This document shows positions 33,506 to 50,006 of a DNA stretch of 64,000 nucleotides, in pieces. The DNA lies in NCBI GenBank assembly GCA_043825855.1, contig JBDRRJ010000009.1, positions 17,866 through 81,865 on the forward strand. Direction: 5' to 3'. Each line of letters opens with the position of its first letter. Within the stretch, counting starts at the first letter, position 1. The notes below the pieces were generated by a model, which saw nothing but the letters and a program-made list of their open reading frames with translations, had not been told where the DNA came from and ran no database searches. The position numbers and the translations under genes are program-made. The DNA comes from Pseudomonadota bacterium. Lineage in GTDB: Bacteria; Desulfobacterota; UBA8473.

Positions 33506-33745
33506 TGTTTTAGAAATGCATGGAGCTTGCCCTCTGTAATAGTCAAACTTACCACACAGAAGAATTCATGGACGGTTAAAAAACCTCACCCTAAAAACCG
33601 GAAAATGAGATTTTTTGTTATCTTACCACATCTATAAAGAATAACAATAATACAGGTTGCAATTATTGATATTCTATCGACTATATAAAGATGACCAACG
33701 GGGCAGAAAAAGGAATTTGGACAACAGCCTGTTCATACGTGACTC

Positions 33746-34942
33746 TTATCGCTTTTTCATAGGTGGGGGAATAAATTGGTCATTGTTATCTTTTTGTGAT
33801 TTGAAAAGAAAATACTTCGGTACCCTTGGAATTAACCATTTAATGTAACTTTTATATGTTTTTTGAAGAGTAGGGACTTCAAGATATTTATCTATAACAT
33901 CAACATTACCAGTAAGCATCTTAAAAAAGATTCCAGGAAAACCATGCATTATTCTTGAAAGCATTAACGCATATTTTAAATTATCAGCAAATTCCCGTTT
34001 GCAAATTGATTCATAGTCTTTTAATGAACTTAGCCTATTATTTCTTAATAGAATGCCAGATATTACTTCTACTGCTATCTGTCCAGATCTTATTGCATAT
34101 GAAATGCCTTCCCCGTAAAATGGGTCTACAAATCCTCCGGCATCACCACTTAAAACAATTCTTGAACTTGTAATATCTCGCTTTATTCCTCCTAGAGGGA
34201 TTAAGTGACCTCTCAACTCATATTTACCCTCAAAGCCGTTAACTTGTAAAAAATCCATCATAGTATTTTTAGGGTGAGGTAAATCCTTTGCTAATCCACC
34301 TATACCCACAGAGTAGTATTTTTCATGCGGGAATATCCATCCATAACCCATATTAGCCACACCAAAGTGAATGTCTATAGCATGGTGTATATATTTATCA
34401 ATTGTTTCATTATCCTCTTCAATTTCTGTAACTATACATATACAATATTCATCCTTTTTGTCTCTTTTTCTTATTTTATTTTTTAATCTCCCCTGAGAAC
34501 CCTCCGCTATAATGACAAATTTCGATTTATACACGTTATCCTTGGTGAAAACCTCTACATAATCATTATTCTCTTTGTAATCAATGATTTTCTCCCCTAT
34601 TATTGTTTCGATACCAGTTTCTTTAGCTTTTTTGAGCAGGTAATCATCCAATATACTCCTGGTCACCAGAGTTGCCATTCGATTTTTTTTATGTCTTTCA
34701 ATAACCTGTCCTCTAAAATGCACCCTTGCTCCATATATCTCTCTTTCATGGATATGTTGAGGAAGATCAAAATCAAGGTATGACATTGCCTGTTCAGAAA
34801 AAGCACCCCCACAGGGCTTATACCTTGGAAATGTTTCTTTTTCTATTAAAAGAGTTTCCAGGCCTAACTTTCCTGCAAGTCTTCCTGCTGCTGATCCGGA
34901 AGGACCACCGCCTATAATGATCAAATCATACATTTTATTCAT
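33746..34942 (-). CDS. FAD-dependent geranylgeranyl reductase family oxidoreductase
   Basis: YDLIIIGGGPSGSAAGRLAGKLG…PCGG with a GGR-like C-terminal region. Confidence 0.7.
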   Translation of the reverse strand: MNKMYDLIIIGGGPSGSAAGRLAGKLGLETLLIEKETFPRYKPCGGAFSEQAMSYLDFDLPQHIHEREIYGARVHFRGQVIERHKKNRMATLVTRSILDDYLLKKAKETGIETIIGEKIIDYKENNDYVEVFTKDNVYKSKFVIIAEGSQGRLKNKIRKRDKKDEYCICIVTEIEEDNETIDKYIHHAIDIHFGVANMGYGWIFPHEKYYSVGIGGLAKDLPHPKNTMMDFLQVNGFEGKYELRGHLIPLGGIKRDITSSRIVLSGDAGGFVDPFYGEGISYAIRSGQIAVEVISGILLRNNRLSSLKDYESICKREFADNLKYALMLSRIMHGFPGIFFKMLTGNVDVIDKYLEVPTLQKTYKSYIKWLIPRVPKYFLFKSQKDNNDQFIPPPMKKR

Positions 34943-35189
34943 AATTAGTTAGTAGTAGTTGAATACTGTAAAATTCAATAGAAGAAACAAAAAACAGTAT
35001 AAAATTGAGATGCCTGCCTGAAGTCGAACTTAAAAGGGGTATTGTTGAAAGCTAAGTTATTTCATAGTACCGATACACGTTACTAATAAAAACTACAAGT
35101 TAAAGCTGTCATTTTGCAGAGATCGTATTTGTTAAATTGGGTATGGGTAAAATATAATATCATTACTGGAAAGCTGGAGAAGCTTGTGG

Positions 35190-35339
35190 TTAGGTTCCCT
35201 GAAGTTTTGCCAATGCCTCACTTATTTTTTCGATCTCCCTTTCCAGCGTTTTCTGCCTTTTGGATATGCTTAAGATATAAATAAAAATAATTAGCCATGT
35301 AATACCAAAGGCAGCAAAGAGATAAAAGGTGCCGGTCAT
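35190..35339 (-). CDS. ccmD: CcmD heme exporter small membrane protein (49 aa, below the ORF-track cutoff)
   Basis: Manual translation: MTGTFYLFAAFGITWLIIFIYILSISKRQKTLEREIEKISEALAKLQGT. It has one TM helix and lies 20 nt downstream of ccmC. Confidence 0.55.
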   Translation of the reverse strand: MTGTFYLFAAFGITWLIIFIYILSISKRQKTLEREIEKISEALAKLQGT

Positions 35340-35359
35340 TGAATCATCCTCTCTTTTAT

Positions 35360-36055
35360 TTAGTATTCGAAATGAGTTTGATCTTCCATGAGATCCCTCA
35401 TCTCCTCAACTTTGAATCTCATCTTCTCAAGCTTAATCCTGCTTATAAGGAGCAATAAGAAAAGAAGGAAAAAAGCGACAAATGAAATTAATAACGTATG
35501 TTGCATCGGTGTTGAGATATTTATGCCCTTTTTTGTAATAATTAATGGGTGTATAGTTCTCCATAGCCTGATAGCCAAAAAAGTAATAGGAACGTTAATA
35601 AACCCGAAAATTCCAAATATTGCGGAAAAGTTTGATCGCTGATTTTCTCCTGCCACCCTTCGAAGCATGAGGTATGCGACGTAAGTAAACCAAAGAATCA
35701 AGGTTGTCGTTAATCTTGGGTCCCACGTCCACCATACGTTCCAGATGGGTTTTGCCCATATGGGTCCGGTTAACAAAACAATAGTGCAGAATATGACCCC
35801 TATTTCTGCAGAAGAAGAGGCAATTATATCCCATTTATGATTTCTTCTGGACAGGTAAAGAATACTGGCTATAAAAGTTATGAAAAAGGCAAAAAAAGCT
35901 AAAAAAGCAGAAGGTAAATGGAAGTAGAAAATCTTCTGCACAATACCCATGGTTTTTTCGACAGGGGCATAAAGAAATATAGCATAAAGAGCCAGAAGCA
36001 TCATAAAAAAGGTAATGAACTGAAGTGTTTTAAGAAGAGCTCGGTTATCTGTCAA
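35360..36055 (-). CDS. ccmC: CcmC heme exporter protein
   Basis: Trp-rich WWD motif, WNVWWTWDPRLT; 231 aa multi-TM. Confidence 0.85.
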   Translation of the reverse strand: MTDNRALLKTLQFITFFMMLLALYAIFLYAPVEKTMGIVQKIFYFHLPSAFLAFFAFFITFIASILYLSRRNHKWDIIASSSAEIGVIFCTIVLLTGPIWAKPIWNVWWTWDPRLTTTLILWFTYVAYLMLRRVAGENQRSNFSAIFGIFGFINVPITFLAIRLWRTIHPLIITKKGINISTPMQHTLLISFVAFFLLFLLLLISRIKLEKMRFKVEEMRDLMEDQTHFEY

Positions 36056-36058
36056 TAT

Positions 36059-36736
36059 TTATTCCTCCATGATGAAACCAAAAGTTAAATAAGCGAGCAG
36101 GAGAAAGATCAGATCAAATGCAATCAAAATCTTTAGCCACGAATATATCTCCTGTATTGTTCCTCCCCAGAGAATTATGCCGGTTGACTTGACTAATGCA
36201 ATAATCATGGGAACGGAGATAGGAAACACTAGAATTGACAGCATTACATCCCTTGCTTTTGTAGCCGCAGACATGGCGGAAAAGATTGTGCCTATGGTAG
36301 CAAACCCCAATGTTCCCAAAAAAATGATCAATACGAGAGGTAACATAAATGCTATGATATTTATGTTATATAGAATTATAAATAAGGCTAGGGTAAATAT
36401 CTCCATAACGACCATAAAGATGAAGACCCCGATCATCTTTCCCAGATATATTCCCCATGGGCTTATCGGGCAGAGAAGCAGACCATGGAGAGTTCCCTTG
36501 TCCCGTTCCATACCGAAAGACCTGCCTAATCCTGTCAGGCCTGAAAATATAAATGCTACCCAGAGTATACCCGAGGCATTTTCCTTTAAATTTTTTGATC
36601 CCATATCGAAGGCAAAGTTAAAGATAACCAGGACCAGAAAGGAAAAGAGACACATCGAGAGGAACATCTCTTTGGTGCGGAGTTCAGATGTGATGTCTTT
36701 CGATACGATGGCCCACACTTTTTGAATAAAAGTCAT
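36059..36736 (-). CDS. ccmB: CcmB heme exporter permease
   Basis: 225-aa six-TM ABC-2-type permease between ccmA and ccmC. Confidence 0.8.
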   Translation of the reverse strand: MTFIQKVWAIVSKDITSELRTKEMFLSMCLFSFLVLVIFNFAFDMGSKNLKENASGILWVAFIFSGLTGLGRSFGMERDKGTLHGLLLCPISPWGIYLGKMIGVFIFMVVMEIFTLALFIILYNINIIAFMLPLVLIIFLGTLGFATIGTIFSAMSAATKARDVMLSILVFPISVPMIIALVKSTGIILWGGTIQEIYSWLKILIAFDLIFLLLAYLTFGFIMEE

Positions 36737-36775
36737 AAGGACAAGACCTGGTTTATTTTGAAAAGGGATACTTTT

Positions 36776-37531
36776 TCAAAACTCTATGTTCGGAGATGTT
36801 TGTTCTCCTGTATGTTTAAAATAGATATCTTTAAAGTCATTTTGAATTATTTTAGATATTTCTTCCTTATAAACAAGATTCCCTGATTTTAAGATTGCTG
36901 CCTGGGTGCACAATTCCAACCCTCTGTCCAAATCATGAGATGTCATGACGATGGTTCTCCCCTGATCCCGAAATTTTTTCAGGATTTGCTTGAAATCCTC
37001 GACACCATGTTGGTCCATGCCGGTAAAGGGTTCATCGAGAAATAGTATCAATGGGTCATGGATTATTGCCCTAGCTACAGAAAGGCGCTGCTGCATTCCA
37101 CGCGAAAAGGTCTGTACATGATCGTTAATGTATTCTTTCAACCCTACCAGTCCCGAAACCTCTTTAATCCTCTCTTCCAGATTCATTACATTATACATTT
37201 TCCCGTAGAATTTCAGGTTTTCGTAGGCAGATAAATTATTGTACAGAAATGTATTGTGTGAAATGACCCCGATTACTTTATGGAGAGCTTCTCTGTCGTA
37301 TCCGGCATCAAACCCTGCTACCCGAACATTGCCTGAGGTCGGTCGCATCAGAGAACACAGTATTTGAATTAATGTTGTTTTCCCTGCTCCATTGGGACCA
37401 AACAGTGCCAGAAAATCCCCCTTTTTTAAAGAGAGGTCAATATTGCGCAGGACTGTTTTAAAACCGAATTTTTTAACCAGCCCTTTTGCTTCAACTATAT
37501 AGTTATCTTCTTTTTGCAATTGAATCGACAC
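36776..37531 (-). CDS. ccmA: CcmA-type ABC transporter ATP-binding protein
   Basis: Walker A GPNGAGKTT, signature motif and Walker B; cluster context. Confidence 0.8.
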   Translation of the reverse strand: MSIQLQKEDNYIVEAKGLVKKFGFKTVLRNIDLSLKKGDFLALFGPNGAGKTTLIQILCSLMRPTSGNVRVAGFDAGYDREALHKVIGVISHNTFLYNNLSAYENLKFYGKMYNVMNLEERIKEVSGLVGLKEYINDHVQTFSRGMQQRLSVARAIIHDPLILFLDEPFTGMDQHGVEDFKQILKKFRDQGRTIVMTSHDLDRGLELCTQAAILKSGNLVYKEEISKIIQNDFKDIYFKHTGEQTSPNIEF

Positions 37532-37783
37532 CTTTAAAAAACTAATTCATTTTAAAAAAAGTATCCAGTTTACCAAAACCTTTATACAGCCCCCCAAGGG
37601 CTTTGAAGGAGTCTCCCTTTTCACTTCGGCATAATTTTTTTGACCCTACTAAGCTCGCTTCATTGAAAATTAACAAACTCGCCCTTCGGGCTTAGACATG
37701 TTAATTTTCTGTATTACGCTCGCTAAGGTAGGTTCCCCAAAAAACTTATAAATTCGTTCTAAGGAAACTTCTTCAAAACTCTA

Positions 37784-38182
37784 TTACTCATACTTCGATG
37801 CGCACTTCGGCATGATTGTAGTTGCTATGAACTGCCCATCGCTCTTATATGTCCCCTCTACGACAACTTCTCTTCCAGGTTTAAAAGAATCAGGCACAAC
37901 CCCCCTGTAATCAACGAGGAGGCTTGATTTATCATCCTCCATTTTAAAAAACAGCCTTAAATCCTTGGGGTCCCATTGTACAGAATCAATGGATACGTTT
38001 CCCCCGACACGGACAGTTTGATTCTGGATTTCTGATGATTTGGCCAATACCTCGCTTACCGTCAGATAGTAAGTCATGGTGTCTCTCAAACCGGTATAAA
38101 TGAGATACCCGATCACAGAAACGATAATAAATGAAATTATAATGGGTTTAAGTCTTCTTTTCTTTTCCACATTTTTTTCCAT
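37784..38182 (-). CDS. ccmE: CcmE heme chaperone, the variant that carries CxxxY (CASKY) in place of the canonical HxxxY heme-binding motif
   Basis: N-terminal TM plus an OB-fold region (VRVGGNVSIDSVQW) and C-terminal …IMPKCASKYE. Confidence 0.8.
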   Translation of the reverse strand: MEKNVEKKRRLKPIIISFIIVSVIGYLIYTGLRDTMTYYLTVSEVLAKSSEIQNQTVRVGGNVSIDSVQWDPKDLRLFFKMEDDKSSLLVDYRGVVPDSFKPGREVVVEGTYKSDGQFIATTIMPKCASKYE

Positions 38183-38259
38183 TTATTTTTTTTGAAAGTG
38201 CTTTTAGAACTTTGCAAACCTGTCAAGAGCTTTGGAAAATGTGTCATCTTTCAAAGCTG

Positions 38260-39471
38260 TCACTTCAACTGTCTTGTTATTTCCGTTGCCTTTTTTAGTA
38301 ATTCAGTCCGCTTTACCTGATACTCTTCAGAGTCAATTCCACCTGATTCTGAAAGGTCATCTAATTCAGCTATGGCCCGCAAAACTACCTGCTTTTGTTC
38401 ATGCAGGTCTGTTTTGTTTATTTCGAGAGTCGGTTCATCCTCTTTATGCTGATCTTTCCGCCTCCTTAAGAAAGGAATGGTAACCCCGACTCCTATCAAC
38501 AGTACCAATAGTCCTGCAATAACCCACTTGAAAATGTTTTGCGTACCGGGAAGGTTGCTGAATTTTATAACAACCTGAGACCCTTTAGCAAAGTTTTTCC
38601 CTGAGAGGCGGGAAAAACGCCCTGCTGAATCTCCCATGGTTCCTTTGAATTCCATCTGATCACTCTTAGCTCCAATCCCTTTGGCGGGAAAGAAGAAATC
38701 GATACTGTCCGTCTTAACAGGGATACCTTTTATAAATTGATAAGTAGCCCCACTGTAATTAACTGCATAAGAAAATATGATTTTCCTTATACCCGGTTTA
38801 AAATCCATGGTGTCAGAGAAGCCTTCTTCTGTCTTAACAACAAACCAGGACATTAAACCGTCTATATAACTGATATTGGTTGCCTCTTTTGGTAAAGAAA
38901 TTTGAAGTGTTTCCTTCTTTCCTGGTTCAAGTTCTTTATTACCAACATATACCATATTCCCCTGGTTTTCAACTATCATCAGTTCCTTTATCCAAAGCGA
39001 ATCCCCTTTAATTTCTGAAAATATATGATGCATTTTGACATATAAATCTGTGTCCTTATCTGTCGTCTCATAGACGGTCAGATTAATGGCGAGAGTTTTT
39101 TTGTCCTCAAAGACTAAGGGTTGGCTGAAGTACTCTACTCCCTTATAATTGGTTAAAAGGAAGTATACTATTTTTTTGTCTACATCTATATCCTTAAATG
39201 AAATGAAACCACCGGGTTTAGTTTTTGCACGACTGACTTCCGACTCTTTTTCGTCAACAAACTGGTAAAGTACTATTTCGAGGCCTTCCATGCCTTTCTT
39301 ACCCAATGTATCATTGGTGACCTGTCCTTTGATAATACCTGATGACAAATCTTCGGCCATCGTAACAACAGGGAGCGAAAGAAAGAGTAACAGCAAGACT
39401 GTTGTGTATATTGAGTTATATATTTGCTTCATTGGCGCTTCCTGAAAGATAAGCGATTTCCGGGCACTCAT
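38260..39471 (-). CDS. Hypothetical exported protein in the ccm cluster, with an N-terminal signal peptide, a C-terminal TM anchor and a cytoplasmic coiled-coil tail. The true start is possibly the Met at 39432.
   Basis: MKQIYNSIYTTVLLLLFLSLPVVTMA signal; …WVIAGLLVLLIGVGVTIPFLRRRK TM near the C-terminus. No CcmH CxxC motif. Confidence 0.4.
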   Translation of the reverse strand: MSARKSLIFQEAPMKQIYNSIYTTVLLLLFLSLPVVTMAEDLSSGIIKGQVTNDTLGKKGMEGLEIVLYQFVDEKESEVSRAKTKPGGFISFKDIDVDKKIVYFLLTNYKGVEYFSQPLVFEDKKTLAINLTVYETTDKDTDLYVKMHHIFSEIKGDSLWIKELMIVENQGNMVYVGNKELEPGKKETLQISLPKEATNISYIDGLMSWFVVKTEEGFSDTMDFKPGIRKIIFSYAVNYSGATYQFIKGIPVKTDSIDFFFPAKGIGAKSDQMEFKGTMGDSAGRFSRLSGKNFAKGSQVVIKFSNLPGTQNIFKWVIAGLLVLLIGVGVTIPFLRRRKDQHKEDEPTLEINKTDLHEQKQVVLRAIAELDDLSESGGIDSEEYQVKRTELLKKATEITRQLK

Positions 39472-39480
39472 CTGTCTCTA

Positions 39481-39699
39481 TTATTTTTTAGTCTGTCTTG
39501 TCCGTATCGCAGAAATTTCCTCTTCAATCTCTTTTTCAATATCTGCTTCAGACAGAACCGTTTCACCTCTTTTATTTGACGCGAGTTTATTAGTCTTTAC
39601 AGTAGGAGACCCTTTTAATCTATTTGGCTTTAACAGAGGATATATTATCCAGCAGCCTGCCGCTATGAGTAAACCTATAATCACAATATATTCCAGCAT
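39481..39699 (-). CDS. Small single-TM protein immediately downstream of ccmF (trimmed to the Met at 39699)
   Basis: MLEYIVIIGLLIAAGCWIIYPLL…, 72 aa. Confidence 0.3.
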   Translation of the reverse strand: MLEYIVIIGLLIAAGCWIIYPLLKPNRLKGSPTVKTNKLASNKRGETVLSEADIEKEIEEEISAIRTRQTKK

Positions 39700-39709
39700 A
39701 TAGAGTCTC

Positions 39710-41662
39710 CTACAGACCAGCCCCCTCAGTTTTTTTTCTGCGATCCGGTAAAGTTGCAATAGCAGCCCCCAAAGCCATTACTATTCCGCCGATCCAGAGC
39801 CAGAGCACAAGAGGATTTATCATAACTTTAAAAGCTGCCTCATCTTCGTCATATCCGGCCAAAATGACATAGAAGTCTTCCTTTAAGTTTGTATGAATTG
39901 CTACATCCGTGGTTAACTGATCCTGCCCTTTGTATAAGCTCTTTTCGGGCGCTAAAACCCCAACTTTATGATTCCCCTTAAAAAGTGTAAGTATTGCAGC
40001 AACTGTAAGCTTGTTTTCACTATTATAATTATTGAGCGTATCATACCTCAATGTGTATCCCTTTAGATCAAAAGATTCTCCCTTTTTTAATGTTATCTGT
40101 TTTTCCATATTAAAGGCACTGCCAGTGACAGCCACAAATATCAAAACAACCCCCAGGTGAACGAGATAACCGCCGTATCGTCTTTTATTCCTTGCTACCA
40201 GATTCCACAATGCCTTTGGGTATTTTTCGCCTGATGATGTGTGTCGTGTTCTGGTACCATTAAGTAACTTAAGAAAAAGGGTAACCAGGGCAAAAATTGA
40301 TAGGGAAAATGATGCCAGTACATAAAGAGAACCTATCCCCAAAAGATAGAGAACAATAGCCCCTGTCATGGAGAAAATAAAAGGTAAAAGCAACTTTTTC
40401 AGGAAGTTCTTGGCGGATGATTTGCTCCAGGTAATTAAGGGGCATACTCCTGCCAGCAGTAATAGTAGTAAAGCAACAGGGGGAACAACAGTATTAAAAA
40501 AAGGGGGACCTATTGTAATTTTTACACCACGAATTGCTTCGTATATAACAGGTAAAAGTGTTCCCCAGAGTATTGCAAAAGCCATCCCGACGAGAAGGAG
40601 ATTGTTATACAGGAAGGTGCTTTCTTTGGAGAGCGGGGATTCCATAAGGTTTTTGCTTTTTAGCTCAGGCAGTCGATAGATTAGGAAAATTAAAGATATT
40701 ACAGTTACTATGCCTAAAAATAACAGAAAGAGCCAACCAAGTGATGATTGTCCAAAGGCATGGACTGAAGAAAGAACCCCACTCCTGGTTATAAAGGTTC
40801 CAAAAATAGTTAGGAGAAAAGTGAATATGATCAAAAGAATATTCCATATCTTCAGCATACCACGTTTTTCCTGGATCATTACCGAATGCAGGTAGGCTGT
40901 TCCGATGAGCCAGGGTATTAACGAGGCATTTTCAACCGGGTCCCATCCCCAGTAGCCTCCCCATCCCAGCTCCACATAAGCCCACTGAGCGCCCAATACG
41001 TTTCCCACTGTCAAAAATAACCATGAAAAAATTGCCCATTTTCTGGTAGTTCTTATCCAGACGTTTCCCAGTTGCCCTGTAATTAATGCTGCTATAGCAA
41101 ATGCGAACGGGACAGAAAATCCGACATAGCCTAAAAATAGAGTAGGTGGGTGAAATATCATGCCGGGGTTTTGGAGCAAAGGGTTTAACCCTTGACCGTC
41201 AAACGGCACTGGGCTTATGGTCTTGAATGGATTGGACACAAAGACCATCAGGAGCGTGAAAAAAAAAGTAATTATCATCAATACTGAAAGAACATAGGGA
41301 AGAAGCTCGAGGTTTTTCTCCCTGTTCTGGAAAATCACTATTGCCGCATAAATAGAAAGAAGCCATGCCCAGAAAAGCAGGGAGCCTGCCTGCCCAGCAT
41401 AAAAGGCAGTTACTGTATAAATCATTGGAAGAGTGCTATTTGTGTATCTCGCTACGTATTCGACCTGAAAATCCCTTGTCACCAGGGAATATATCATAGC
41501 GATAGAGGCTAAAGTCAGAAACCCGAATACAGTGATAGCAGCATTTTTTGAACTGACAATCAACTCTTCTTTCCGGCCTCTAATCCCTATAATCGAGGTT
41601 AATGCCGAATAGCCGGCAAATAAGAATGCAATTAAAAGAGAATAAAATCCTATTTCAGTCAT
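39710..41662 (-). CDS. ccmF: CcmF cytochrome c-type biogenesis protein (heme lyase component)
   Basis: 650-aa polytopic protein with a WGGYWGWDPVENASLIPW WWD domain. Confidence 0.9.
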   Translation of the reverse strand: MTEIGFYSLLIAFLFAGYSALTSIIGIRGRKEELIVSSKNAAITVFGFLTLASIAMIYSLVTRDFQVEYVARYTNSTLPMIYTVTAFYAGQAGSLLFWAWLLSIYAAIVIFQNREKNLELLPYVLSVLMIITFFFTLLMVFVSNPFKTISPVPFDGQGLNPLLQNPGMIFHPPTLFLGYVGFSVPFAFAIAALITGQLGNVWIRTTRKWAIFSWLFLTVGNVLGAQWAYVELGWGGYWGWDPVENASLIPWLIGTAYLHSVMIQEKRGMLKIWNILLIIFTFLLTIFGTFITRSGVLSSVHAFGQSSLGWLFLLFLGIVTVISLIFLIYRLPELKSKNLMESPLSKESTFLYNNLLLVGMAFAILWGTLLPVIYEAIRGVKITIGPPFFNTVVPPVALLLLLLAGVCPLITWSKSSAKNFLKKLLLPFIFSMTGAIVLYLLGIGSLYVLASFSLSIFALVTLFLKLLNGTRTRHTSSGEKYPKALWNLVARNKRRYGGYLVHLGVVLIFVAVTGSAFNMEKQITLKKGESFDLKGYTLRYDTLNNYNSENKLTVAAILTLFKGNHKVGVLAPEKSLYKGQDQLTTDVAIHTNLKEDFYVILAGYDEDEAAFKVMINPLVLWLWIGGIVMALGAAIATLPDRRKKTEGAGL

Positions 41663-41800: not shown

Positions 41801-43036
41801 TCAGGTTTTTTTTCTGCCATCCTTAAGTACTATGCCAAGCCGGCCCATCTCTTCCCTTATCCTGTCTGCCGGTTTCCAAATCTCTTTTTCTCTCAATTCA
41901 TTTCTAACCGTCAGGAGCAATTCCATCAAAGAAGTCAGTAGATTTTTATCCTCTTTTGATGTCTCCAATGCCTTGCTTATAATCCTGATCTGCATATCAA
42001 CCAGTCTTTCGTAGGCGTTAATTAGCTTATCGAATGTTTCTCCACCCGCCTTTGCCTTATGAATTTTATTCAATAGCTCATTAGTGACCCCTGCGGCAGA
42101 AGCGATGTCTCCTCTTTCTTCCAGGGTTCTAAGAAACTTTTTTTCCATCTCTGAAATCTTTGTCAATAAAGATTCACCCGTCGACGCTGAGGAAAGCAAA
42201 ACGGCTGTCTGTTTAATTTTTTCTCCGGATGGGGCTAATTCGTCAAATCCAAAAATCGAATCATTTGAGAAAGTTTTGTCACACCCCTTTCTTCGTATAA
42301 TAACCTGTCCCACCCCGTTAACTGAACAGGTTCTCTGGTCCAGATCTATAATACAGGCTGTGTGTTCATCTAAACCCAGTATAGTCGTTGAATCGGGTAA
42401 CTGGTCTTCCAAAACATTTAACCTTGGCGCACCCATATAACAAAACCTGGTGTCATGATTCCCTCCTTCAGAGTTATTCCAGTGAGGGATGACAACAATA
42501 TCCAGTCCCAAATCTCCAAGTAAATCAAGACCGTCCATCCAAAAGGGGGCTTCACCCACCTTGTAAATTTCATATATGGGGATAGAATATCTGCCCACAC
42601 AGATCGATGCAGCGCTTGCAAAAACCAGATGGCTGCCCTTATAAAGACTCGTCTTGATGGCATCTCCCACAGCGTTTCCCAACCAGTTTTTAAGAGCATA
42701 GGTAGGGCTGCCGGGACCTGAAAATATAAAATGGGCATTCATTATCTTATGGGCTGCCTCTTTTAACTCCAGGGGGGTTGCTCTGGAAAAGTCCATAAAT
42801 AAAACAGGCTCCATCTTTACCCTAAAGTGTTTTTCAAAATACTCTCCTGCTTTCTGTGATAATACGTCTGAATTAAGCTGAAACCCTGCCGGGGTATCGA
42901 GAAAGAGTGCCCTTACAGGTTTTTCCTCGATCCTGTTCAGGATTTTCTTGTGCACCCTCACCATGGAACTGGTCATCTCTCCTGATCCCATGATGGTTAT
43001 TGTTCCTTTTTTATTGCTTTGATAATCCTTTGACAA
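41801..43036 (-). CDS. Peptidase S51-like (cyanophycinase / dipeptidase E fold) protein with a ~130-aa C-terminal coiled-coil extension
   Basis: AHFIFSGPGSPTYALKNWLGN…LYKGSHLVFASAASICVG parallels peptidase E IIIVGGGNTFQLL…ALYIGWSAGANLAC. Confidence 0.4.
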   Translation of the reverse strand: MSKDYQSNKKGTITIMGSGEMTSSMVRVHKKILNRIEEKPVRALFLDTPAGFQLNSDVLSQKAGEYFEKHFRVKMEPVLFMDFSRATPLELKEAAHKIMNAHFIFSGPGSPTYALKNWLGNAVGDAIKTSLYKGSHLVFASAASICVGRYSIPIYEIYKVGEAPFWMDGLDLLGDLGLDIVVIPHWNNSEGGNHDTRFCYMGAPRLNVLEDQLPDSTTILGLDEHTACIIDLDQRTCSVNGVGQVIIRRKGCDKTFSNDSIFGFDELAPSGEKIKQTAVLLSSASTGESLLTKISEMEKKFLRTLEERGDIASAAGVTNELLNKIHKAKAGGETFDKLINAYERLVDMQIRIISKALETSKEDKNLLTSLMELLLTVRNELREKEIWKPADRIREEMGRLGIVLKDGRKKT

Positions 43037-43261: not shown

Positions 43262-43894
43262 TTATGGTGCAGCCCAGTCTTTACCCAGGTACAGGGGAAG
43301 CTCTCCGCAACATACAGGTCCTATATTTACCTTCCATCCTGTTAGCCGTTCTATTTCCTTTGTTAAAGGTTCGGCAAATCCAGGTATGATTATCTCCCTA
43401 TGGTTGAGTTTTTCACTCATGTTGTTATCCTCAATCATATTCTTAACACGTTCCGGAGTGAATGTCTTAAGAATTACTGCCATATCCATTGTATCTCCTT
43501 TTGTGTCCATAAACAAAACATAAAAAGGTTTGACCGTTGTGGAAAGTATGGCAGAAAGAGCTACTTGGGTAAGCTCAGAATTGCCAGAGATTAAAAGAGT
43601 AGAGTCTTTGTCCGGCATATTGAACTCAACCAGACCGACTTCTGCCGGGACGGGAAGCTGCATAAGCTCAATTTCCGGGATGATCTTTTCGGAATTCAAG
43701 GCAGTACTGAATGCATAAGCCATATTCCCGGAAATATAAGGACAAACCTCAGGTTTATACTCATATGTCCGTAACCTTTCCAGCAATTCTTTGCAGGTTT
43801 CAAAACCGCATTCTCCGCAGTCGATTTGAGGCAAGTATTTGTAATAGTCGATTTGGTTAAAATATAAGATGGCTTTTAACATGATTCTATTCAA
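43262..43894 (-). CDS. Fe-S cluster-binding domain protein with the CGECGFETC motif (similar to the N-terminal domain of the corrinoid/Fe-S protein)
   Basis: DCGECGFETCKELL…VCPY cysteine pattern. The remainder is not recognised. Confidence 0.4.
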   Translation of the reverse strand: MNRIMLKAILYFNQIDYYKYLPQIDCGECGFETCKELLERLRTYEYKPEVCPYISGNMAYAFSTALNSEKIIPEIELMQLPVPAEVGLVEFNMPDKDSTLLISGNSELTQVALSAILSTTVKPFYVLFMDTKGDTMDMAVILKTFTPERVKNMIEDNNMSEKLNHREIIIPGFAEPLTKEIERLTGWKVNIGPVCCGELPLYLGKDWAAP

Positions 43895-44410
43895 ATATTA
43901 CCTGATAATTCCAAAGTTTTTTCATGATTCTCACCCTTGTGCAATATATAAACAAATATAACAAAATCGTATATAATTCAATGAAAAACTGTCTGAAGAG
44001 TTTTGGTGAACAACTCTCATTTAGCCGTAGTCATTGTTTTAATAGGGTCTAATCTTAAACGTTCGGTTATCTTGAAAAGTATGGCGACGGTTTATACCCT
44101 TATGTACGTATTATAAGGAAAACATTAACGGTTATTCCAGGATAAAAGGACAAAAAACAGACTTTAATTAAGTATGACCAAGCTATTATTGAGCAATAAA
44201 AAAATGTATTTTGGATAAAAAATTATGTATAATAAACAAACTGTAAATTGAAAAACAATAACTTAGCAAAATATTTAAACTTTCTTTCTCTCGTGAGCGT
44301 TTTTCTAATTTTTTTCAGATGTAAAGTAACTCTTCTATTTCTTCAGATGTCTAAATAAACAAGTTATCAAAAATTGAAGTTTAAATATGATGGAGAAAGG
44401 AGATAACAAA

Positions 44411-45025
44411 ATGAAAAAGTTACTTTTAGGGACAATCCTTTTAACGTTGGTCATTGTTGCTCCTGCCCGTACAATGGCTGAGATAGATGTAAGAGTTGGG
44501 ATTTCTTTACCGCCTCTCATCTTATTTGGGTCAGCTCCGGATGTGGTAGTGCTGCCAGAGACGGACAATGTATATGTTGTGCCCAGCATAGGTGTAGACC
44601 TGTTTTTCTGGAGTGGCTGGTGGTGGCGTCCATGGGAAGGTCGCTGGTATCGCTCACGTTATTATGACAGGGGATGGGCTTATTATGACAGAGTACCGGT
44701 ATTCTATTTTGATGTAGAACCGGGTTGGAGAAATCACTACAGAGACCATAGTTGGTATAATCACCGCTGGGAACATAAACGGATTCCTAATCAAGAACTT
44801 CAACGGAACTGGAAAAACTGGCAAAAAAACCGTTATTGGGAAAGGCAGAGAACCTGGGACATCCAAAAGTATAGACCTCAACCGCAACAACGGAGACAGG
44901 AACTGAGAAATCAAAGGCAACAGCAATATCAGCAGAGATCTGAGGTTCGTCAGGAAAGACAGAGACGGGAACGAAGAGAACAAAGGCCTGATGTTCAGCG
45001 ACAATACCAGGATCGACAAAGATAA
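44411..45025 (+). CDS. Secreted Trp/Arg/Tyr-rich protein with a short Gln/Arg-rich tail; paralogue of 45893..47032. Start trimmed to MKKLLLG, which has an RBS (aaaggaga).
   Basis: Signal peptide, then a conserved core: …VYVVPSIGVDLFFWSGWWWRPWEGRWYRSRYYDRGWAYYDRVPVFYFDVEPGWRNHYRDHSWYNHRW…. Confidence 0.6.
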   Translation: MKKLLLGTILLTLVIVAPARTMAEIDVRVGISLPPLILFGSAPDVVVLPETDNVYVVPSIGVDLFFWSGWWWRPWEGRWYRSRYYDRGWAYYDRVPVFYFDVEPGWRNHYRDHSWYNHRWEHKRIPNQELQRNWKNWQKNRYWERQRTWDIQKYRPQPQQRRQELRNQRQQQYQQRSEVRQERQRRERREQRPDVQRQYQDRQR

Positions 45026-45154
45026 CTTTGGGCATAGGCAAGGAAATTACAAAATACGACATCGATGCTGACCATTTCAGTAATGCCTTTATTAATGAGG
45101 CTATGGACCGGTATTACTTTAACAATATTTTTCTGTGGGTGTGATTCAGGGTGA

Positions 45155-45778
45155 TTACTTGTTTTGGATGTTGGCTATCCGGTCATTCCATGATGGATGG
45201 CTATCCCAAAATCCGCCACCCTCGGCAGAGTCTTTTTGGAGAGTTTTAAGGATTTGAATTTGTCTCTCAATGGAAATACCAAAGTGAGTAACAAGGACAT
45301 CGGAAGCCAGCTGATCGGCTTCCCGCTCCTGGGGTTTGCTGTAATTACTGGTAACTGCAGGATTGACAGCGTAATTTAACAAACCTGCGCCGGGAACAAA
45401 AATATCAACGATCATCATAACTCCTGTGGTAGCTATACTTACAGCCTGTTTTTTCTGGACATGGTTCAGTTTTATATGAGCCATTTCATGAACAATGACG
45501 AAGGTTAGGGTATCGTCATCATACCTGAAAAGACCTTCAGAAAGATTCACGTTATTATTTGCGTCAACAAAAGCATTAGGAGCTTTACCACCGTAAAAAT
45601 ACAGTTTGCATTCCTCTGTGATTTCCATGTCGTGGAGTGCTTTATTAAATATCTCCACACTTGGACGATCTTTAATATATTGAGGGACTATGTAAGGTTG
45701 ACGCGGGGAAGCGCAACCGATGAAAAGGGTAATGATTATAAGTGTTAATCCTATTCGTTTCATGTTATTATTATACAC
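45155..45778 (-). CDS. M48-family zinc metallopeptidase lipoprotein
   Basis: Lipobox LFIGCASP and HEMAHIKLNH (HExxH…H). Confidence 0.7.
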   Translation of the reverse strand: MYNNNMKRIGLTLIIITLFIGCASPRQPYIVPQYIKDRPSVEIFNKALHDMEITEECKLYFYGGKAPNAFVDANNNVNLSEGLFRYDDDTLTFVIVHEMAHIKLNHVQKKQAVSIATTGVMMIVDIFVPGAGLLNYAVNPAVTSNYSKPQEREADQLASDVLVTHFGISIERQIQILKTLQKDSAEGGGFWDSHPSWNDRIANIQNK

Positions 45779-45892
45779 TCTATTCAGGTTTTACAAAAGT
45801 TTTTAGTTTAAAACCTCTTTTTCGCAAAAGCATTTTTCTGGGATTTTTTTATAAATAAAAGTTTAAAAGTTATGGAGAAAGGAAATAACAAA

Positions 45893-47032
45893 ATGAAAAG
45901 GTTATTTTTGGGGACAATCCTTTTATCATTGGTAATTATCGTTGCTGCCTGTGTAGTGCCTGGAGCGAGTTTAAGAGTTGCAGTTCCTTTGCCGCCGTAC
46001 ATTGCATTCAGGTCAGCTCCGGATGTTATAGTGTTGCCAGATACGGATGATGTGTACGTTGTGCCCGATATCGATATAGACCTGTTTTTCTGGGGTGGCT
46101 GGTGGTGGCGTCCATGGGACGGTCGCTGGTATCGCTCACTTTATTATGACCGGGGATGGGCTTACTATGCCAGAGTTCCGATCTTCTATTTTGACATCGA
46201 TCCGGGTTGGAGAAGTCATTACAGAAACCATAGTTGGTTTAATTACCGCTGGGACTATAAACGGATCCCTCAACGGGAACTTCAACAGAACTGGAAAACC
46301 TGGCAGAAAAATCGATATTGGGAAAAGCAGAGAACCTGGGACATACAAAAGTATGAACCCCGACCGCTACAACAAAGACAGGAACTGAGAAATCAAAGGC
46401 AACAGCAATATCAGCAGAGACCTGAGATTCAGCAAGAAAGACAGAGATTGGAACTAAGAGATCAAAAGCAGGAGCAATATCAACAAAGGCCTGAAGTTCA
46501 GCAAGAACAACAGAGGCAGGAGCTGAGAAATCAAAAGGAAGAAGAGCAACGCAGAATTGAGATTCAGCAAGAAAGACAGCGACAGGAGCTACGAGAGCGA
46601 AAGGAAGAAGATCAACGAAGACTAGAGATGCAGCAAGAACAACAGAGACCCGAGGTTGGGCAAGAACGACAAAGGGAGGAATTAAAAGATCAAAGGCAAG
46701 AACAGTATCAACAAAGACCTGATGTTCAACAGGAACGGCAGAGGCAGGAACTAAAAGATCAAAAGCAGAAGCAATATCAACAGAGGCCTGAGGTTCAGCA
46801 ACAAGAAAAGAAACAGGAGTTACTTAAACAAAGAGAAGAAGAAAAACGAAGAATTGAGATGCAGCAGGAACGACAGAAGCAGGAGCTACGTAAGCAAAGG
46901 GAAGAAGTTAAACAGAAACCTGAAGTTAGGCAAAAACTAGAGAAAGAGAAAGTAAAAGATAAAGATCAAGAGCAACAGGAAGAGGAAGATCTACAGAAGC
47001 CAGAGCTTAAGCGAAATTTGCGGCAGAGATAA
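45893..47032 (+). CDS. Secreted Trp/Arg/Tyr-rich protein with a long Gln/Arg/Glu-rich tandem-repeat tail; paralogue of 44411..45025
   Basis: Same signal peptide plus W-rich core (…DIDLFFWGGWWWRPWDGRWYRSLYYDRGWAYYARVPIFYFDIDPGW…), followed by about nine 25-26-aa repeats of the form QQRPEVQQE.QRQELRNQKEE. Confidence 0.6.
   Translation: MKRLFLGTILLSLVIIVAACVVPGASLRVAVPLPPYIAFRSAPDVIVLPDTDDVYVVPDIDIDLFFWGGWWWRPWDGRWYRSLYYDRGWAYYARVPIFYFDIDPGWRSHYRNHSWFNYRWDYKRIPQRELQQNWKTWQKNRYWEKQRTWDIQKYEPRPLQQRQELRNQRQQQYQQRPEIQQERQRLELRDQKQEQYQQRPEVQQEQQRQELRNQKEEEQRRIEIQQERQRQELRERKEEDQRRLEMQQEQQRPEVGQERQREELKDQRQEQYQQRPDVQQERQRQELKDQKQKQYQQRPEVQQQEKKQELLKQREEEKRRIEMQQERQKQELRKQREEVKQKPEVRQKLEKEKVKDKDQEQQEEEDLQKPELKRNLRQR
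46380..46960 (+). repeat. In-frame tandem repeats of about 75-78 bp that encode the Gln/Arg/Glu-rich tail
   Basis: Units such as caacagcaatatcagcagagacctgagattcagcaagaaagacagagattggaactaagagatcaaaag recur with variation. Confidence 0.5.
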
Positions 47033-47402: not shown

Positions 47403-48305
47403 ATGAAAAATTCAGATAATAAAATAACAGTTTACGGTTCATCGCAAATACAAAAGAAAATATTCACAATACGTAACGAACAAGTTATCGTAGATCGTGA
47501 TCTAGCAGAATTGTATCAAGTCCCTACTAAACGTCTTAATGAGCAAGTGAAAAGAAATATAGAGAGATTCCCCGATACTTTTAGATTTCAGCTTGATGAT
47601 AACGAAAAAATTGAACTGGTCGCAAATTGCGACCGGTTCGAAAATCTTAAACATTCTTCCGTAAATCCATACGTTTTTACAGAGCAAGGCGTGGCTATGC
47701 TTTCAGCAGTATTGAAAAGCGAAATCGCAGTAGCAGTAAGCATACAAATTATAAATGCTTTTGTTGCTATGCGGAAATTCCTTGTTACAAACGCCGGGGT
47801 TTTTCAGCGGTTAGATAAATTAGAAATTAAGCAAATTGAAACAGATCAAAAATTTGAAAAAGTATTTAATGCGTTACAAAAAAAAGACTATGAACCTAAA
47901 CAAGGGATCTTTTTCGACGGACAAATTTTTGATGCTTACAAGTTTGTCTCATCTCTTATTCGCAAAGCTGAAAAAACCATTCTGTTAATTGATAACTATA
48001 TCGATGAAACTGTCCTGGATTTGTTTACCAAGAAGAAAAAGGATGTTTCTGTAACAATATTAACAGCTAATCTTAACAAATCTCTAACACTTGATGGAAA
48101 GAAATTCAACAAACAGTATCCGCGTATAACCATAAAAGAATTTAACAAAGCACACGATAGATTTTTGATTGTTGATGACAGCGTTGTTTACCACTTTGGC
48201 GCTTCATTGAAGGATTTGGGTAATAAGTGGTTTGCTTTTTCAAAGATGGATAAATCCGTACTTGAATTATTAGAAAACCTTAAAAAGGTTGATGCTGATG
48301 ATTGA
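47403..48305 (+). CDS. ORF6N (KilA-N superfamily) domain protein with an uncharacterised C-terminal domain
   Basis: …VYGSSQIQKKIFTIRNEQVIVDRDLAELYQVPTKRLNEQVKRNIERFPDTFRFQL…NPYVFTEQGVAMLSAVLKS. Confidence 0.6.
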   Translation: MKNSDNKITVYGSSQIQKKIFTIRNEQVIVDRDLAELYQVPTKRLNEQVKRNIERFPDTFRFQLDDNEKIELVANCDRFENLKHSSVNPYVFTEQGVAMLSAVLKSEIAVAVSIQIINAFVAMRKFLVTNAGVFQRLDKLEIKQIETDQKFEKVFNALQKKDYEPKQGIFFDGQIFDAYKFVSSLIRKAEKTILLIDNYIDETVLDLFTKKKKDVSVTILTANLNKSLTLDGKKFNKQYPRITIKEFNKAHDRFLIVDDSVVYHFGASLKDLGNKWFAFSKMDKSVLELLENLKKVDADD

Positions 48306-48337
48306 GTGGAAGGAAAATGAAGTCGGTAAAATTCCGT

Positions 48338-48465
48338 CTGACTGGGGTGGCCGACTAAAGCCATAGGTTTAATACTTTCAAAGAAAAAGAAAGAATAATA
48401 TAGGAGAGCAAAGGGGGAAGGGCGCTTTTTTAGTTTAAGACTGGTCGTATTGGGTTAAAGGATAC
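48338..48465. repeat. Repeat family R1, copy 1 (~125 bp). Other copies are at 50262..50300 (partial) and 50682..50803.
   Basis: ctgactggggtggccgactaaagccataggtttaatactttcaaagaaaaagaaagaataatataggagagcaaagggggaagggcgcttttttagtttaagactggtcgtattgggttaaagg, about 88% identical to copy 3. Confidence 0.65.
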
Positions 48466-48597
48466 AATGTAGAAATGGAAGATTGAATTATAAAATCCCT
48501 TTTGATAAACTCTGAAAAATTACCGAATTATTGAGCATATGTAATTGTCCAATTTTTCTGGATATCATTCCAAAAGTGATATTATCCAGCTAATTAT

Positions 48598-49083
48598 GTG
48601 GTAAAGTACAGAAAACTAGATACTAACTTGTTATACGGGATGAAGATGAAGAAGGCACAACCACAATGGCGATGGGAAGATGGCGTTGTGGATGATCGGA
48701 AAGAACACATTGAGCTTCGCCACGGGAACGCAATGGAAACCCCATATGAGGACTGGTTGCCCGTTGCTCGAATTGGAAAACCAAAGGAAAAGGTCTTCCC
48801 CGTGCAATGGTTGGTCAAACTGGACTCTCCGGAAGATCAGGTCATGTTGGCCGATGCACGCCGGGAACTGGACTTTTATTTGGTCGAGAAAGGTGAACCC
48901 GACCCCTGGGCCTATGCTTATTACCACTGTAATACGGGGGCGAACATGTACTCGCGCATACATTGGTCGTTTTTCCCCGACGGACGGGACGGTAAGCGGG
49001 TGTCAAGCCTTGTAATAGAACTCTCGGCCAAACAGGCGGAAGAACTGTTCGGAAAACCGCAGAAGACGAATGCAGGGAAGTGA
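48598..49083 (+). CDS. Hypothetical protein, relatively GC-rich compared with its neighbours
   Basis: 161-aa ORF with no recognised domain. Confidence 0.35.
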   Translation: MVKYRKLDTNLLYGMKMKKAQPQWRWEDGVVDDRKEHIELRHGNAMETPYEDWLPVARIGKPKEKVFPVQWLVKLDSPEDQVMLADARRELDFYLVEKGEPDPWAYAYYHCNTGANMYSRIHWSFFPDGRDGKRVSSLVIELSAKQAEELFGKPQKTNAGK

Positions 49084-49295
49084 GTTATGGACTATGGCAA
49101 CCGATGATGGGGCTACTACCGCATTCGATTGTAGCCTGAGGAGATCGAGAAGCACAAATAGATCCTATCTGAAGTGATTGCTGAGGCCTATGCGACAGGT
49201 GGTTAGAAATAAAAGCCGAACCAAACGTTGGAGACTATGCGGTAAACCGCGCTCCTCAACACTATCGTTATATGGTTCCTAAAACTAGATGAACT

Positions 49296-50006
49296 ATGAA
49301 CACTGAAAAACTATATGCGCGCCTTGTCCAGATTTGGGAGAGTACTTTCGAGGACGACTACGATACCCTGGTGCCTCTCGTTCCTGTGCCACCGAAGGCA
49401 CATTGTCTCCTTTTTGTTGGTTTGAATCCCTCCTTCAATCCCAGTGCTATTCGCAGATTGCTACCCGCGGAAAAGCGAATCGAACCTAGCACTTACTTCC
49501 ATTGGAGGAACAGACGAACATTCGACCCACAGGTTGACGTCTGCTTGCACGAACATGCTAAGAAAGAATATGTGTATTTCTCGCGCTTTCACAAGCTTTC
49601 GTCCATAGTCGGAGTCGACTGGGACCATATTGATATCTGCTTTTATCGTGAGACCTCTCAAGCCAAAACGCGAAGTAGAATAATCGAGAAGGAATCGACT
49701 CACAAACTAACGGACTTTGGAGAAAAGCAATTCAATCTGTCTATGCAGCTGATTGCGGAGGCAGAACCAAGATGCATCATCGTGGCCAACGCTCTTGCAA
49801 GTAACATCTACAGAATTAAGAACAGACTGAAGTTCTCGCCATCGCGCGGATGTTACCCACAGGTGATCTGCGGTAGGGAGTTGCCAGTTTTCCTTTCGTC
49901 CATGCTCACAGGCCAGAGAGCTTTGGACAACTACTCATTTGAGCGTCTCGCTTGGCACGTTTGTCGTGAGCTGGGCATACCAATGAATTATAGCGGAACC
50001 ACATAA
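49296..50006 (+). CDS. Possible UDG-superfamily (Mug/TDG-like) DNA glycosylase-fold protein
   Basis: CLLFVGLNPSFNPS resembles the Mug motif VVFCGINPGLSSA. Later segments (CIIVANALASNIY…, …VICGRELPVFLSS…) parallel the Mug β4/β5 region. Weak call. Confidence 0.3.
   Translation: MNTEKLYARLVQIWESTFEDDYDTLVPLVPVPPKAHCLLFVGLNPSFNPSAIRRLLPAEKRIEPSTYFHWRNRRTFDPQVDVCLHEHAKKEYVYFSRFHKLSSIVGVDWDHIDICFYRETSQAKTRSRIIEKESTHKLTDFGEKQFNLSMQLIAEAEPRCIIVANALASNIYRIKNRLKFSPSRGCYPQVICGRELPVFLSSMLTGQRALDNYSFERLAWHVCRELGIPMNYSGTT

Follow-up and report, generated by a model that had tools for sequence, protein, structure and literature searches.

In model bacteria, BON/OsmY, CsbD and lmo0937/DUF5670 proteins are classic members of the general-stress regulon. 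The WXXGXW or 'YXWGXW' repeat proteins (PF12779) are small and secreted, and their Pro-rich N-terminal stretches are followed by Trp/Gly/Tyr motifs; their likeness to the proteins described here is taken by us as a lead only. Here, two genes named A and B were analyzed, which are located in a stretch of 64,000 nucleotides (positions 17,866 to 81,865 of contig JBDRRJ010000009.1, assembly GCA_043825855.1), referred to as the window. Both code for exported proteins with a Trp/Tyr/Arg-rich core domain, and they flank a gene coding for an M48 zinc-metallopeptidase lipoprotein. A and B are diverged paralogues in a large unannotated family of exported proteins from anaerobic sediment and soil bacteria. 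Very probably, this family is unclassified and has a new predicted fold, and the M48 gene is an incidental neighbor. As a tentative proposal, its members would be non-enzymatic and probably abundant periplasmic or lipid-anchored envelope proteins acting alongside stress genes. Description and function taken together lie just on the probable side.

A Pair of Paralogous Genes Encoding Exported Proteins

The pair consists of the following genes:

44411–45025, plus strand: gene A, intact open reading frame (ORF) of 204 amino acids
45893–47032, plus strand: gene B, intact ORF of 379 amino acids

Protein A is composed of a Sec signal peptide (MKKLLLGTILLTLVIVAPARTMA, followed by E at the cleavage site), a Trp/Tyr/Arg/Pro-rich domain (residues ~24–157) and a helix motif that is conserved (QELRNQRQQQYQQRSEV), and it ends with a short Arg/Gln tail. 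Protein B consists of a signal peptide with a lipobox (IVAAC, Cys20), the core (residues ~25–158) and a Gln/Glu/Arg/Lys tail of 221 amino acids. The two proteins are 70% identical over 203 amino acids (BLASTP, E 3e-100), which agrees with the preliminary description, in which they had been regarded as paralogues. Their cores (residues ~24–157) are 75% identical and are reciprocal best matches among 260 family sequences, narrowly, as the next best reach 70–71%. The number of synonymous substitutions per synonymous site (dS) between A and B is 0.42 and the ratio of non-synonymous to synonymous substitution (dN/dS) is 0.38.

Both proteins start with a signal peptide, as had been noted before. The signal peptides were read directly from the sequence, using as features a basic n-region and a hydrophobic h-region, followed by either an AxA-type site (signal peptidase I) or a lipobox of the pattern [LVI][ASTVI][GAS]C (signal peptidase II). 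By this reading, A as well as B carries the features of Sec export or of a bacterial lipoprotein. In A, the order is MKK, LLLGTILLTLVIVAP and TMA with E behind it, which corresponds to a signal-peptidase-I-type site, while that of B is MKR, LFLGTILLSLVIIV and AAC, which matches the PROSITE-style lipobox pattern. This pattern was also found in about five other family members. Since its signal peptide ends in a lipobox, B is probably lipid-anchored.

The Core Domain and Its Predicted Fold

The core domains of both genes are located at:

44480–44881, plus strand: core domain of A (residues 24–157), the unit modeled by AlphaFold2
45962–46363, plus strand: core domain of B, included in the family alignments

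The unusual composition of the core was confirmed, with 10% Trp, 8–10% Tyr, 11–12% Arg and a pI of 9.3. A shared core of ~110 amino acids had been described. The shared core stands; its length has to be corrected, since the conserved part comprises ~135 amino acids (24–157) and is followed by the helix motif up to about residue 180. In almost the whole family, this motif (RQELRxQRQxQYQQRPEV) is located behind the core. In the wider family, Trp, Tyr, Phe, Pro and Gly residues as well as Arg73, Arg107 and Ser82 (numbering of A) are near-invariant, and no conserved His, Cys, Asp or Glu was found in the domain in the wider-family alignments. Because these residues are missing, the domain looks like a scaffold or binding module and not like an enzyme or a metal site.

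The core of 140 residues was modeled by AlphaFold2 from an alignment of 116 sequences, which reached down to ~35% identity by including relatives of 35–50% identity. The model has a predicted local distance difference test score (pLDDT) of 90.6 and a predicted template modeling score (pTM) of 0.85, and all five models reach a pLDDT of at least 89. With 43 relatives of 60–70% identity, the pLDDT was 42; this low value was caused by the shallow alignment and not by disorder. In the model, a Pro-rich extended N-terminal segment, predicted with high confidence, is followed by a beta-meander of four to five strands and by several helices. The meander is predicted to be built by the FFWxGWWWRPWxGRWYRS region, and a long helix is predicted over NxELQRNWKNWQK. 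Based on this model, the domain appears to be a compact alpha+beta domain of about 125–135 amino acids.

A Foldseek search with the core model gave no fold match, with best E-values of 3.5 against the PDB and 1.0 against BFVD. Sequence searches were negative as well. By hmmscan against Pfam with E limits of 0.1, 1 and 10, neither A and B nor their isolated cores nor 12 distant relatives were assigned to a family. In NCBIfam there was no match to the core, and the only hit was a compositional one of the B tail to PspC (7 bits, cut-off 500), and neither PHROGs nor the PDB sequence profiles gave a match. The earlier statement that the core could not be assigned to any family therefore agrees with Pfam and NCBIfam, which assign none, and the suggestion of a new domain is strengthened by a confident model that has no match in the PDB or BFVD and by a sequence that has none in Pfam, NCBIfam, PHROGs or the PDB sequences.

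The composition of the core also bears on another explanation, in which the protein interacts with membranes or lipopolysaccharide (LPS). According to this, the protein would insert its WWWRPW-type motif into the membrane interface in the manner of Trp/Arg-rich antimicrobial peptides, and it would stabilize the outer membrane of its own cell or attack competitors. The high Trp and Arg content and the basic pI are consistent with such a role, as are the lipobox matches of some members and the neighboring genes for OmpA-like and BON (phospholipid-binding) proteins. Furthermore, the motif is presumably similar to those of tritrpticin and indolicidin. In contrast, in the AlphaFold2 model the Trp-rich strands are part of a beta-sheet core predicted with high confidence and do not form an exposed peptide, genes of immunity, export or toxin systems were not found at the family loci, and the Sec signal is an ordinary one instead of a bacteriocin leader. 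This explanation is therefore considered doubtful, and a folded, non-enzymatic domain of an envelope protein is preferred.

Size, Distribution, and Annotation Status of the Family

With the core of A as query, more than 1130 clusters were retrieved at 90% identity, and each of them is "hypothetical" or unnamed. The precomputed Pfam field is empty ('-') for all of the ~360 listed relatives. With a profile search in 1.84 billion representatives, 851 clusters at 50% identity were obtained at E ≤ 1e-3 and 297 at E ≤ 1e-10. Among species-representative genomes, a relative is encoded in at least 333 species, and several genomes carry two or more copies. The best 80 of these at least 333 species are represented by metagenome-assembled genomes (MAGs) of Thermodesulfobacteriota and Nitrospirota (Thermodesulfovibrionales), with Syntrophales, Smithella, Syntrophorhabdus, Syntrophobacter and Geobacterales as the thermodesulfobacterial carriers among these 80.

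The distant members follow the pattern PPP-x-vF-x-aPP-x-vVviPgT-x-VYfvPDvdvDvFFY-x-GYWYRPy-x-G-x-WYRS…NW..We.eRyWe, and a second subfamily, which was found with a profile of distant members, is likewise wholly unnamed. In some relatives (P0121, P0254, P0266, P0329, P0332), the domain occurs two or three times in tandem, and their tails vary, being Lys/Ser-rich, Asp/Arg-rich or composed of Thr/Arg repeats. From the tandem copies and the differing tails it follows that the domain behaves as an autonomous module, with a charged low-complexity tail as the constant. A literature search with keywords and motif strings yielded nothing relevant on the family, and no description is known to us. As regards its domain and its predicted fold the family is new, and it conforms to the defining features of no known family.

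For a comparison of the core across MAG lineages, positions 44411–44905 and 45893–46390 of the window were compared with five loci from other genomes (L004, L005, L007, L009, L010). The synonymous divergence of the core is low (dS 0.5–0.9, nucleotide identity 72–80%), compared with a dS of 1.45 between the two halves of the B tail. Either the synonymous sites are constrained, or the genes have moved horizontally between anaerobes fairly recently. The GC content of the core tracks that of the flanks weakly, with a slope of 0.27, which is about as expected if only third codon positions are free. As a side observation, transposase genes are present near some family loci, e.g., L001 and L004.

If the prediction is true, hundreds of anaerobic species of environmental importance (syntrophs, Geobacter relatives and Thermodesulfovibrionales) possess a well-folded and very Trp-rich domain. 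As none of the family and structure libraries searched contains this domain, it is well suited for a new Pfam entry and as a target for solving its structure. The novelty lies in the protein family and in its predicted fold and not in a new kind of biological mechanism.

Tails and Tandem Repeats

The tail of B contains the following feature:

46369–46943, plus strand: repeat region of the B tail, about nine units of 22–23 amino acids with the consensus QQERQRQELRxQKxExxQRxxEV

With 47 amino acids in A and 221 in B, the tail lengths differ 4.7-fold, in line with the roughly fourfold difference noted before. In-frame tandem repeats are indeed present, and their period is 66–69 bp or 22–23 amino acids instead of the 75–78 bp or 26 amino acids originally given. 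The period was derived from Tandem Repeats Finder (66 and 69 bp, 75–77% matches) and from autocorrelation of the protein sequence (peaks at 23 and 22). In the region of A which is equivalent to the B tail, helices are predicted with low confidence. The units of B are nested in a super-repeat, in which 46369–46646 and 46666–46943 form a direct repeat of 278 nt with a spacing of 297 bp (99 amino acids) and 76% identity. By sequence comparison, the repeat unit of B seems to be an amplified version of the helix motif of the family, and a block of 99 amino acids of such units seems to have been duplicated afterwards.

Between the two copies of the super-repeat, dS is 1.45 and dN/dS is 0.12. From these values, the internal duplication of B is old and the sequence of the tail is under purifying selection, which argues against an assembly artefact as well as against a recently expanding array. 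Together with the identity of A and B of only 70–75% and their dS of 0.42, they also speak against a recent duplication of the pair.

An assembly artefact would mean that the long repeat tail is not real and that B is not a real gene. For this it could be argued that the source is a MAG and that the exact sequence of B is absent from a collection of 5.8 billion proteins, in which A from the same contig is present (A is identical to P0001, a hypothetical protein from an NCBI MAG). On the other hand, the repeat units are merely 75–77% identical, so that they are easy to assemble and carry little risk of collapse or expansion. In addition, the frame is open over 379 codons behind a ribosome-binding site typical for the family, and the copies of the super-repeat differ mostly at synonymous sites, which is the signature of a real coding sequence under selection. 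An artefact is thus hardly credible, and B was probably uncalled or dropped in the deposited annotation. In the same collection, coverage of B does not exceed 68% for any protein, and no orthologue of its tail is known.

The description of a repeat-expanding tail fits the family as a whole, in which the tail is a hydrophilic region of low complexity whose length and repeat structure evolve fast from member to member. Of 151 long tails, 18 contain tandem repeats of their own, and the periods of these repeats lie between 10 and 32 amino acids. The tails of 172 close relatives are 31–168 amino acids long (median 85) and consist of 37% Gln, 15% Arg and 11% Pro, with a median net charge of +11. The B tail is longer than any of them. 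About 40% of the close members end in a motif like [SQ]QPQGKPEGG[ED]xEH[RK]K behind the variable Gln/Pro tail, which was seen in relatives P0003–P0120 and P0271–P0328. A conserved C-terminal peptide behind a variable spacer suggests a putative docking or recognition motif. This QGKPEGGxxEHRK-like motif is absent from both copies in the window.

The tails were also compared with hydrophilins and late embryogenesis abundant (LEA) proteins. With 4.5% Gly, the family tails lie below the limit of more than 6% which, next to a high hydrophilicity index, is used for hydrophilins and LEA-like proteins. In the B tail, at least twelve other residues are more common than Gly, and there is no 11-residue periodicity above background, as looked for with regard to LEA group 3. 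The likeness to these proteins is limited to high hydrophilicity.

The composition of the tails is relevant for a further explanation, in which the protein is a periplasmic buffer for metals or ions, with Gln/His/Glu-rich tails binding divalent cations and the domain serving as anchor. The tails of several relatives are His-rich (P0011, P0088, P0228, P0264, P0270), and His amounts to 4.4% of the family tails. A Zip transporter and cation P-type ATPases were found near some loci, and a heavy-metal P-type ATPase is encoded 11 kb upstream in the window. However, the tails of A and B contain no His, the domain has no conserved residue of the four types mentioned above, and the transporter neighbors are sporadic and do not belong to the recurrent neighbor families. 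Metal or ion buffering is accordingly regarded as unlikely, and the tail is seen by us as a possible spacer or polyelectrolyte of an envelope protein, as described below.

Upstream Regions and Translation Starts

The regions directly upstream of both genes are:

44366–44410, plus strand: leader and ribosome-binding region of A, the sole upstream stretch common to A and B
45848–45892, plus strand: leader and ribosome-binding region of B, inside the divergent intergenic region of 114 bp shared with the M48 gene

The near-identity of the 5′ untranslated regions and ribosome-binding sites, as reported before, applies to the ~45 nt before the start codon and not beyond, according to the alignment of the upstream regions. 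A ribosome-binding region of the type AAGGAG(G)-N7-ATGAAA recurs before family genes in many other genomes. Since it is conserved family-wide, it is no mark of a recent duplication. This strong and conserved Shine-Dalgarno sequence is a family trait and suggests high expression.

No credible RNA element was found with Rfam in the whole window or with a permissive scan of 43.8–47.5 kb, and a scan for promoters and terminators gave the same counts as shuffled sequence. A sigma-54 or extracytoplasmic function (ECF) sigma factor promoter before the family genes was considered and rejected, as no consistent motif was seen by eye across the loci. Several Nitrospirota loci show, also by eye, ordinary sigma-70-like boxes of the form TTGAC(T/A)-N17-TATGCT. 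Finally, a leader resembling CCGTTTCCGGAYGAAAACYAAATAAYGAGGCAACAAAATG is common to six loci (L004, L005, L014, L018, L043, L080), ~25–50 nt before the start codon. It is absent from the copies in the window and could be a promoter, an operator or an RNA element.

The M48 Peptidase Gene Between A and B

Between A and B, one gene is located on the opposite strand:

45155–45778, minus strand: M48 zinc-metallopeptidase lipoprotein of 207 amino acids, LoiP/YcaL-like (PF01435, E 1e-15)

The identity of this gene as M48 peptidase was verified by the match to PF01435 (58.5 bits, cut-off 20.3), a HEMAH motif and a lipobox (FIGC). Its best match in NCBIfam is LoiP (NF052399, E 6e-12), with 45.4 bits against a cut-off of 365. 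As this score is far under the cut-off, the gene codes for a generic small M48 lipoprotein and not for a LoiP orthologue. It had been called divergently encoded, which is correct relative to B and incorrect relative to A, to which it is convergent.

In the preliminary description, A and B were proposed as a substrate and sensor pair of the peptidase. According to this, both would be substrates, or a substrate and a sensor, and the three genes would form a module of envelope proteolysis. The genes are adjacent, B and the M48 gene share the intergenic region mentioned above, and an extracytoplasmic location is predicted for each of the three products. Envelope proteins are the targets of the E. 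coli M48 lipoproteins LoiP, YcaL and BepA, and proteases readily cleave long disordered tails, which would also favor such a module. However, no synteny was found in either direction: none of the 84 family loci from other genomes contains a relative of the M48 gene within 8 kb of the family gene, and none of the 17 loci holding relatives of this M48 protein contains a family gene. A reverse search in metagenomes retrieved one M48 relative with 54% identity on a contig of 2.4 kb and otherwise distant ones, and no family gene was present on any of these contigs. In addition, the M48 gene is encoded on the other strand, converging with A, and the members of the family are mostly single genes in varied contexts. 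Without co-occurrence in these loci, the proposal of a substrate and sensor pair finds no support, and a proteolysis module is considered quite improbable. That the M48 gene is located between the two paralogues is a coincidence of this genome, and the peptidase is not a conserved partner of the family.

Genomic Context and Proposed Function

The context of the family was analyzed in ~80–84 loci from other genomes, each within ±8 kb. Family genes are mostly single and their surroundings are varied. BON is the sole recurrent Pfam family among the ±2 neighboring genes (8 of 243). One island (L103) comprises genes for PAS kinases, response regulators and GGDEF proteins, the family gene, ABM, OmpA, BON, THIVI_2564, DUF5670, DUF1207 and an AI-2E transporter. 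As non-signaling stress markers, BON, CsbD-like, DUF5670, OmpA, DUF1207, THIVI_2564, ABM and a coiled-coil protein were searched in ~80 loci. At least one marker was found in 27 of them, at least two in 16 and at least three in 10, and 64% of the marker matches lie no more than 2 kb from the family gene, compared with 25% expected under an even spread over ±8 kb. With Pfam labels, a second locus (L105) shows ABM, three BON genes and DUF4398-OmpA, followed by the family gene, and in a third (L106) the family gene is followed by DUF5670.

Further neighborhoods were noted in single lineages. In Thermodesulfovibrionales (L024, L027, L054, L057, L064), a gene for a DUF3185-like two-helix membrane protein of 73 amino acids is always located directly upstream, and it is probably co-transcribed with the family gene. 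In one locus (L104:5007–6747), msrA and msrB, which code for methionine sulfoxide reductases, apparently form an operon with the family gene, and there is a 4-nt overlap between the latter and the msrB stop codon. MsrA/MsrB were rejected as general partners, since this linkage occurs in one locus and is absent from the other 83.

Based on the context and the composition, proteins of the A/B type would be abundant, non-enzymatic and periplasmic, with a stress or structural role. The family could be grouped functionally with the BON/OsmY-like, CsbD-like, DUF5670, OmpA-like, DUF1207 and PerM genes which it often adjoins. An envelope component would be the docking site of the aromatic and Arg-rich domain; the most plausible candidates are anionic, such as the head groups of phospholipids or LPS, or peptidoglycan. 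The polar and mostly cationic tail would form a hydrated spacer or a polyelectrolyte. In its full form, the proposal combines a new fold of the core with a family that marks an extracytoplasmic general-stress arm in anaerobic sulfate-reducing, syntrophic and Nitrospirota bacteria, in which the domain docks on the anionic component and a fast-evolving polyelectrolyte tail, with nine units in the lipid-anchored B, sets the spacing or hydration of the periplasm. We regard this full form as possible and put it forward tentatively.

Several points weigh against the proposal. The function is read from gene context and composition only. The marker census was carried out by BLAST with queries from the single island L103, and its sole control is the internal distance distribution. 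About two thirds of the family loci contain no stress-island marker, and the window holds none of these markers; A and B are flanked by cytochrome c maturation and other housekeeping genes on one side and by a mobile-looking stretch on the other. Furthermore, the B tail is atypical, with 20% Glu, 10% Lys, 3% Pro and a nearly neutral charge, and it may serve another purpose than the usual Gln/Pro/Arg tails. Finally, the fold search covered the PDB and BFVD, and a relative may exist among the predicted structures of the AlphaFold database.

The genes around the pair were recorded as follows:

30986–41662, minus strand: cytochrome c maturation cluster (CcmF, CcmE, ABC ATPase) and a heavy-metal P-type ATPase with two HMA domains
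41801–43036, minus strand: protein of 411 amino acids with weak sub-threshold matches to S51 peptidase (cyanophycinase-like) and to the CysS C-terminal domain
43262–43894, minus strand: protein of 210 amino acids with a putative Fe-S cluster domain and the C-terminal part of CdhD (acetyl-CoA synthase delta subunit)
47403–48305, directly downstream of B: ORF6N/anti-repressor-like protein with a weak PLD-like C-terminal half
48598–49083 and 49296–50006: ORFs without Pfam or PHROG match

The region 47403–50006 looks like a small mobile or phage-derived stretch beside the pair of paralogues.

Comparison With Known Systems

The M48 gene shares an HExxH zinc site, a match to PF01435 over the cut-off and a lipobox with LoiP, YcaL and BepA. 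It differs from LoiP by its length of 207 amino acids and its score of 45 bits against 365, and it has no conserved link to the Trp-rich family.

The B tail resembles ER/K-type single alpha-helices and trichohyalin-like repeats, as it consists of 50% charged residues and 30% Gln and has a period of 22–23 amino acids. In contrast to ER/K helices, it contains more Gln and less charge, and Pro is present in about half of the units. This likeness is one of composition and not of homology.

With the PF12779 proteins, the family has in common a signal peptide, a PPxxVxxPP-type stretch and W/Y/G-rich motifs resembling beta-hairpins, and both are uncharacterized in function. The two differ in that FFWxGWWWRPWxGRWYRS is part of a domain of ~130 amino acids which includes helices and is not a short repeat. 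By hmmscan against Pfam with E up to 10, the cores of A and B and two distant relatives gave no match, and so none to PF12779.

A further comparison is that with the BON-domain (OsmY type), CsbD and DUF5670 stress set. Like these proteins, the family belongs to the exported compartment and is devoid of catalytic residues, and it shares the same islands in about a third of its loci. A regulation common to the family and to the BON, CsbD and DUF5670 genes is probable, and the linkage to islands with BON, CsbD, DUF5670 and OmpA would provide a testable handle on a poorly known envelope stress response of anaerobes that are hard to culture.

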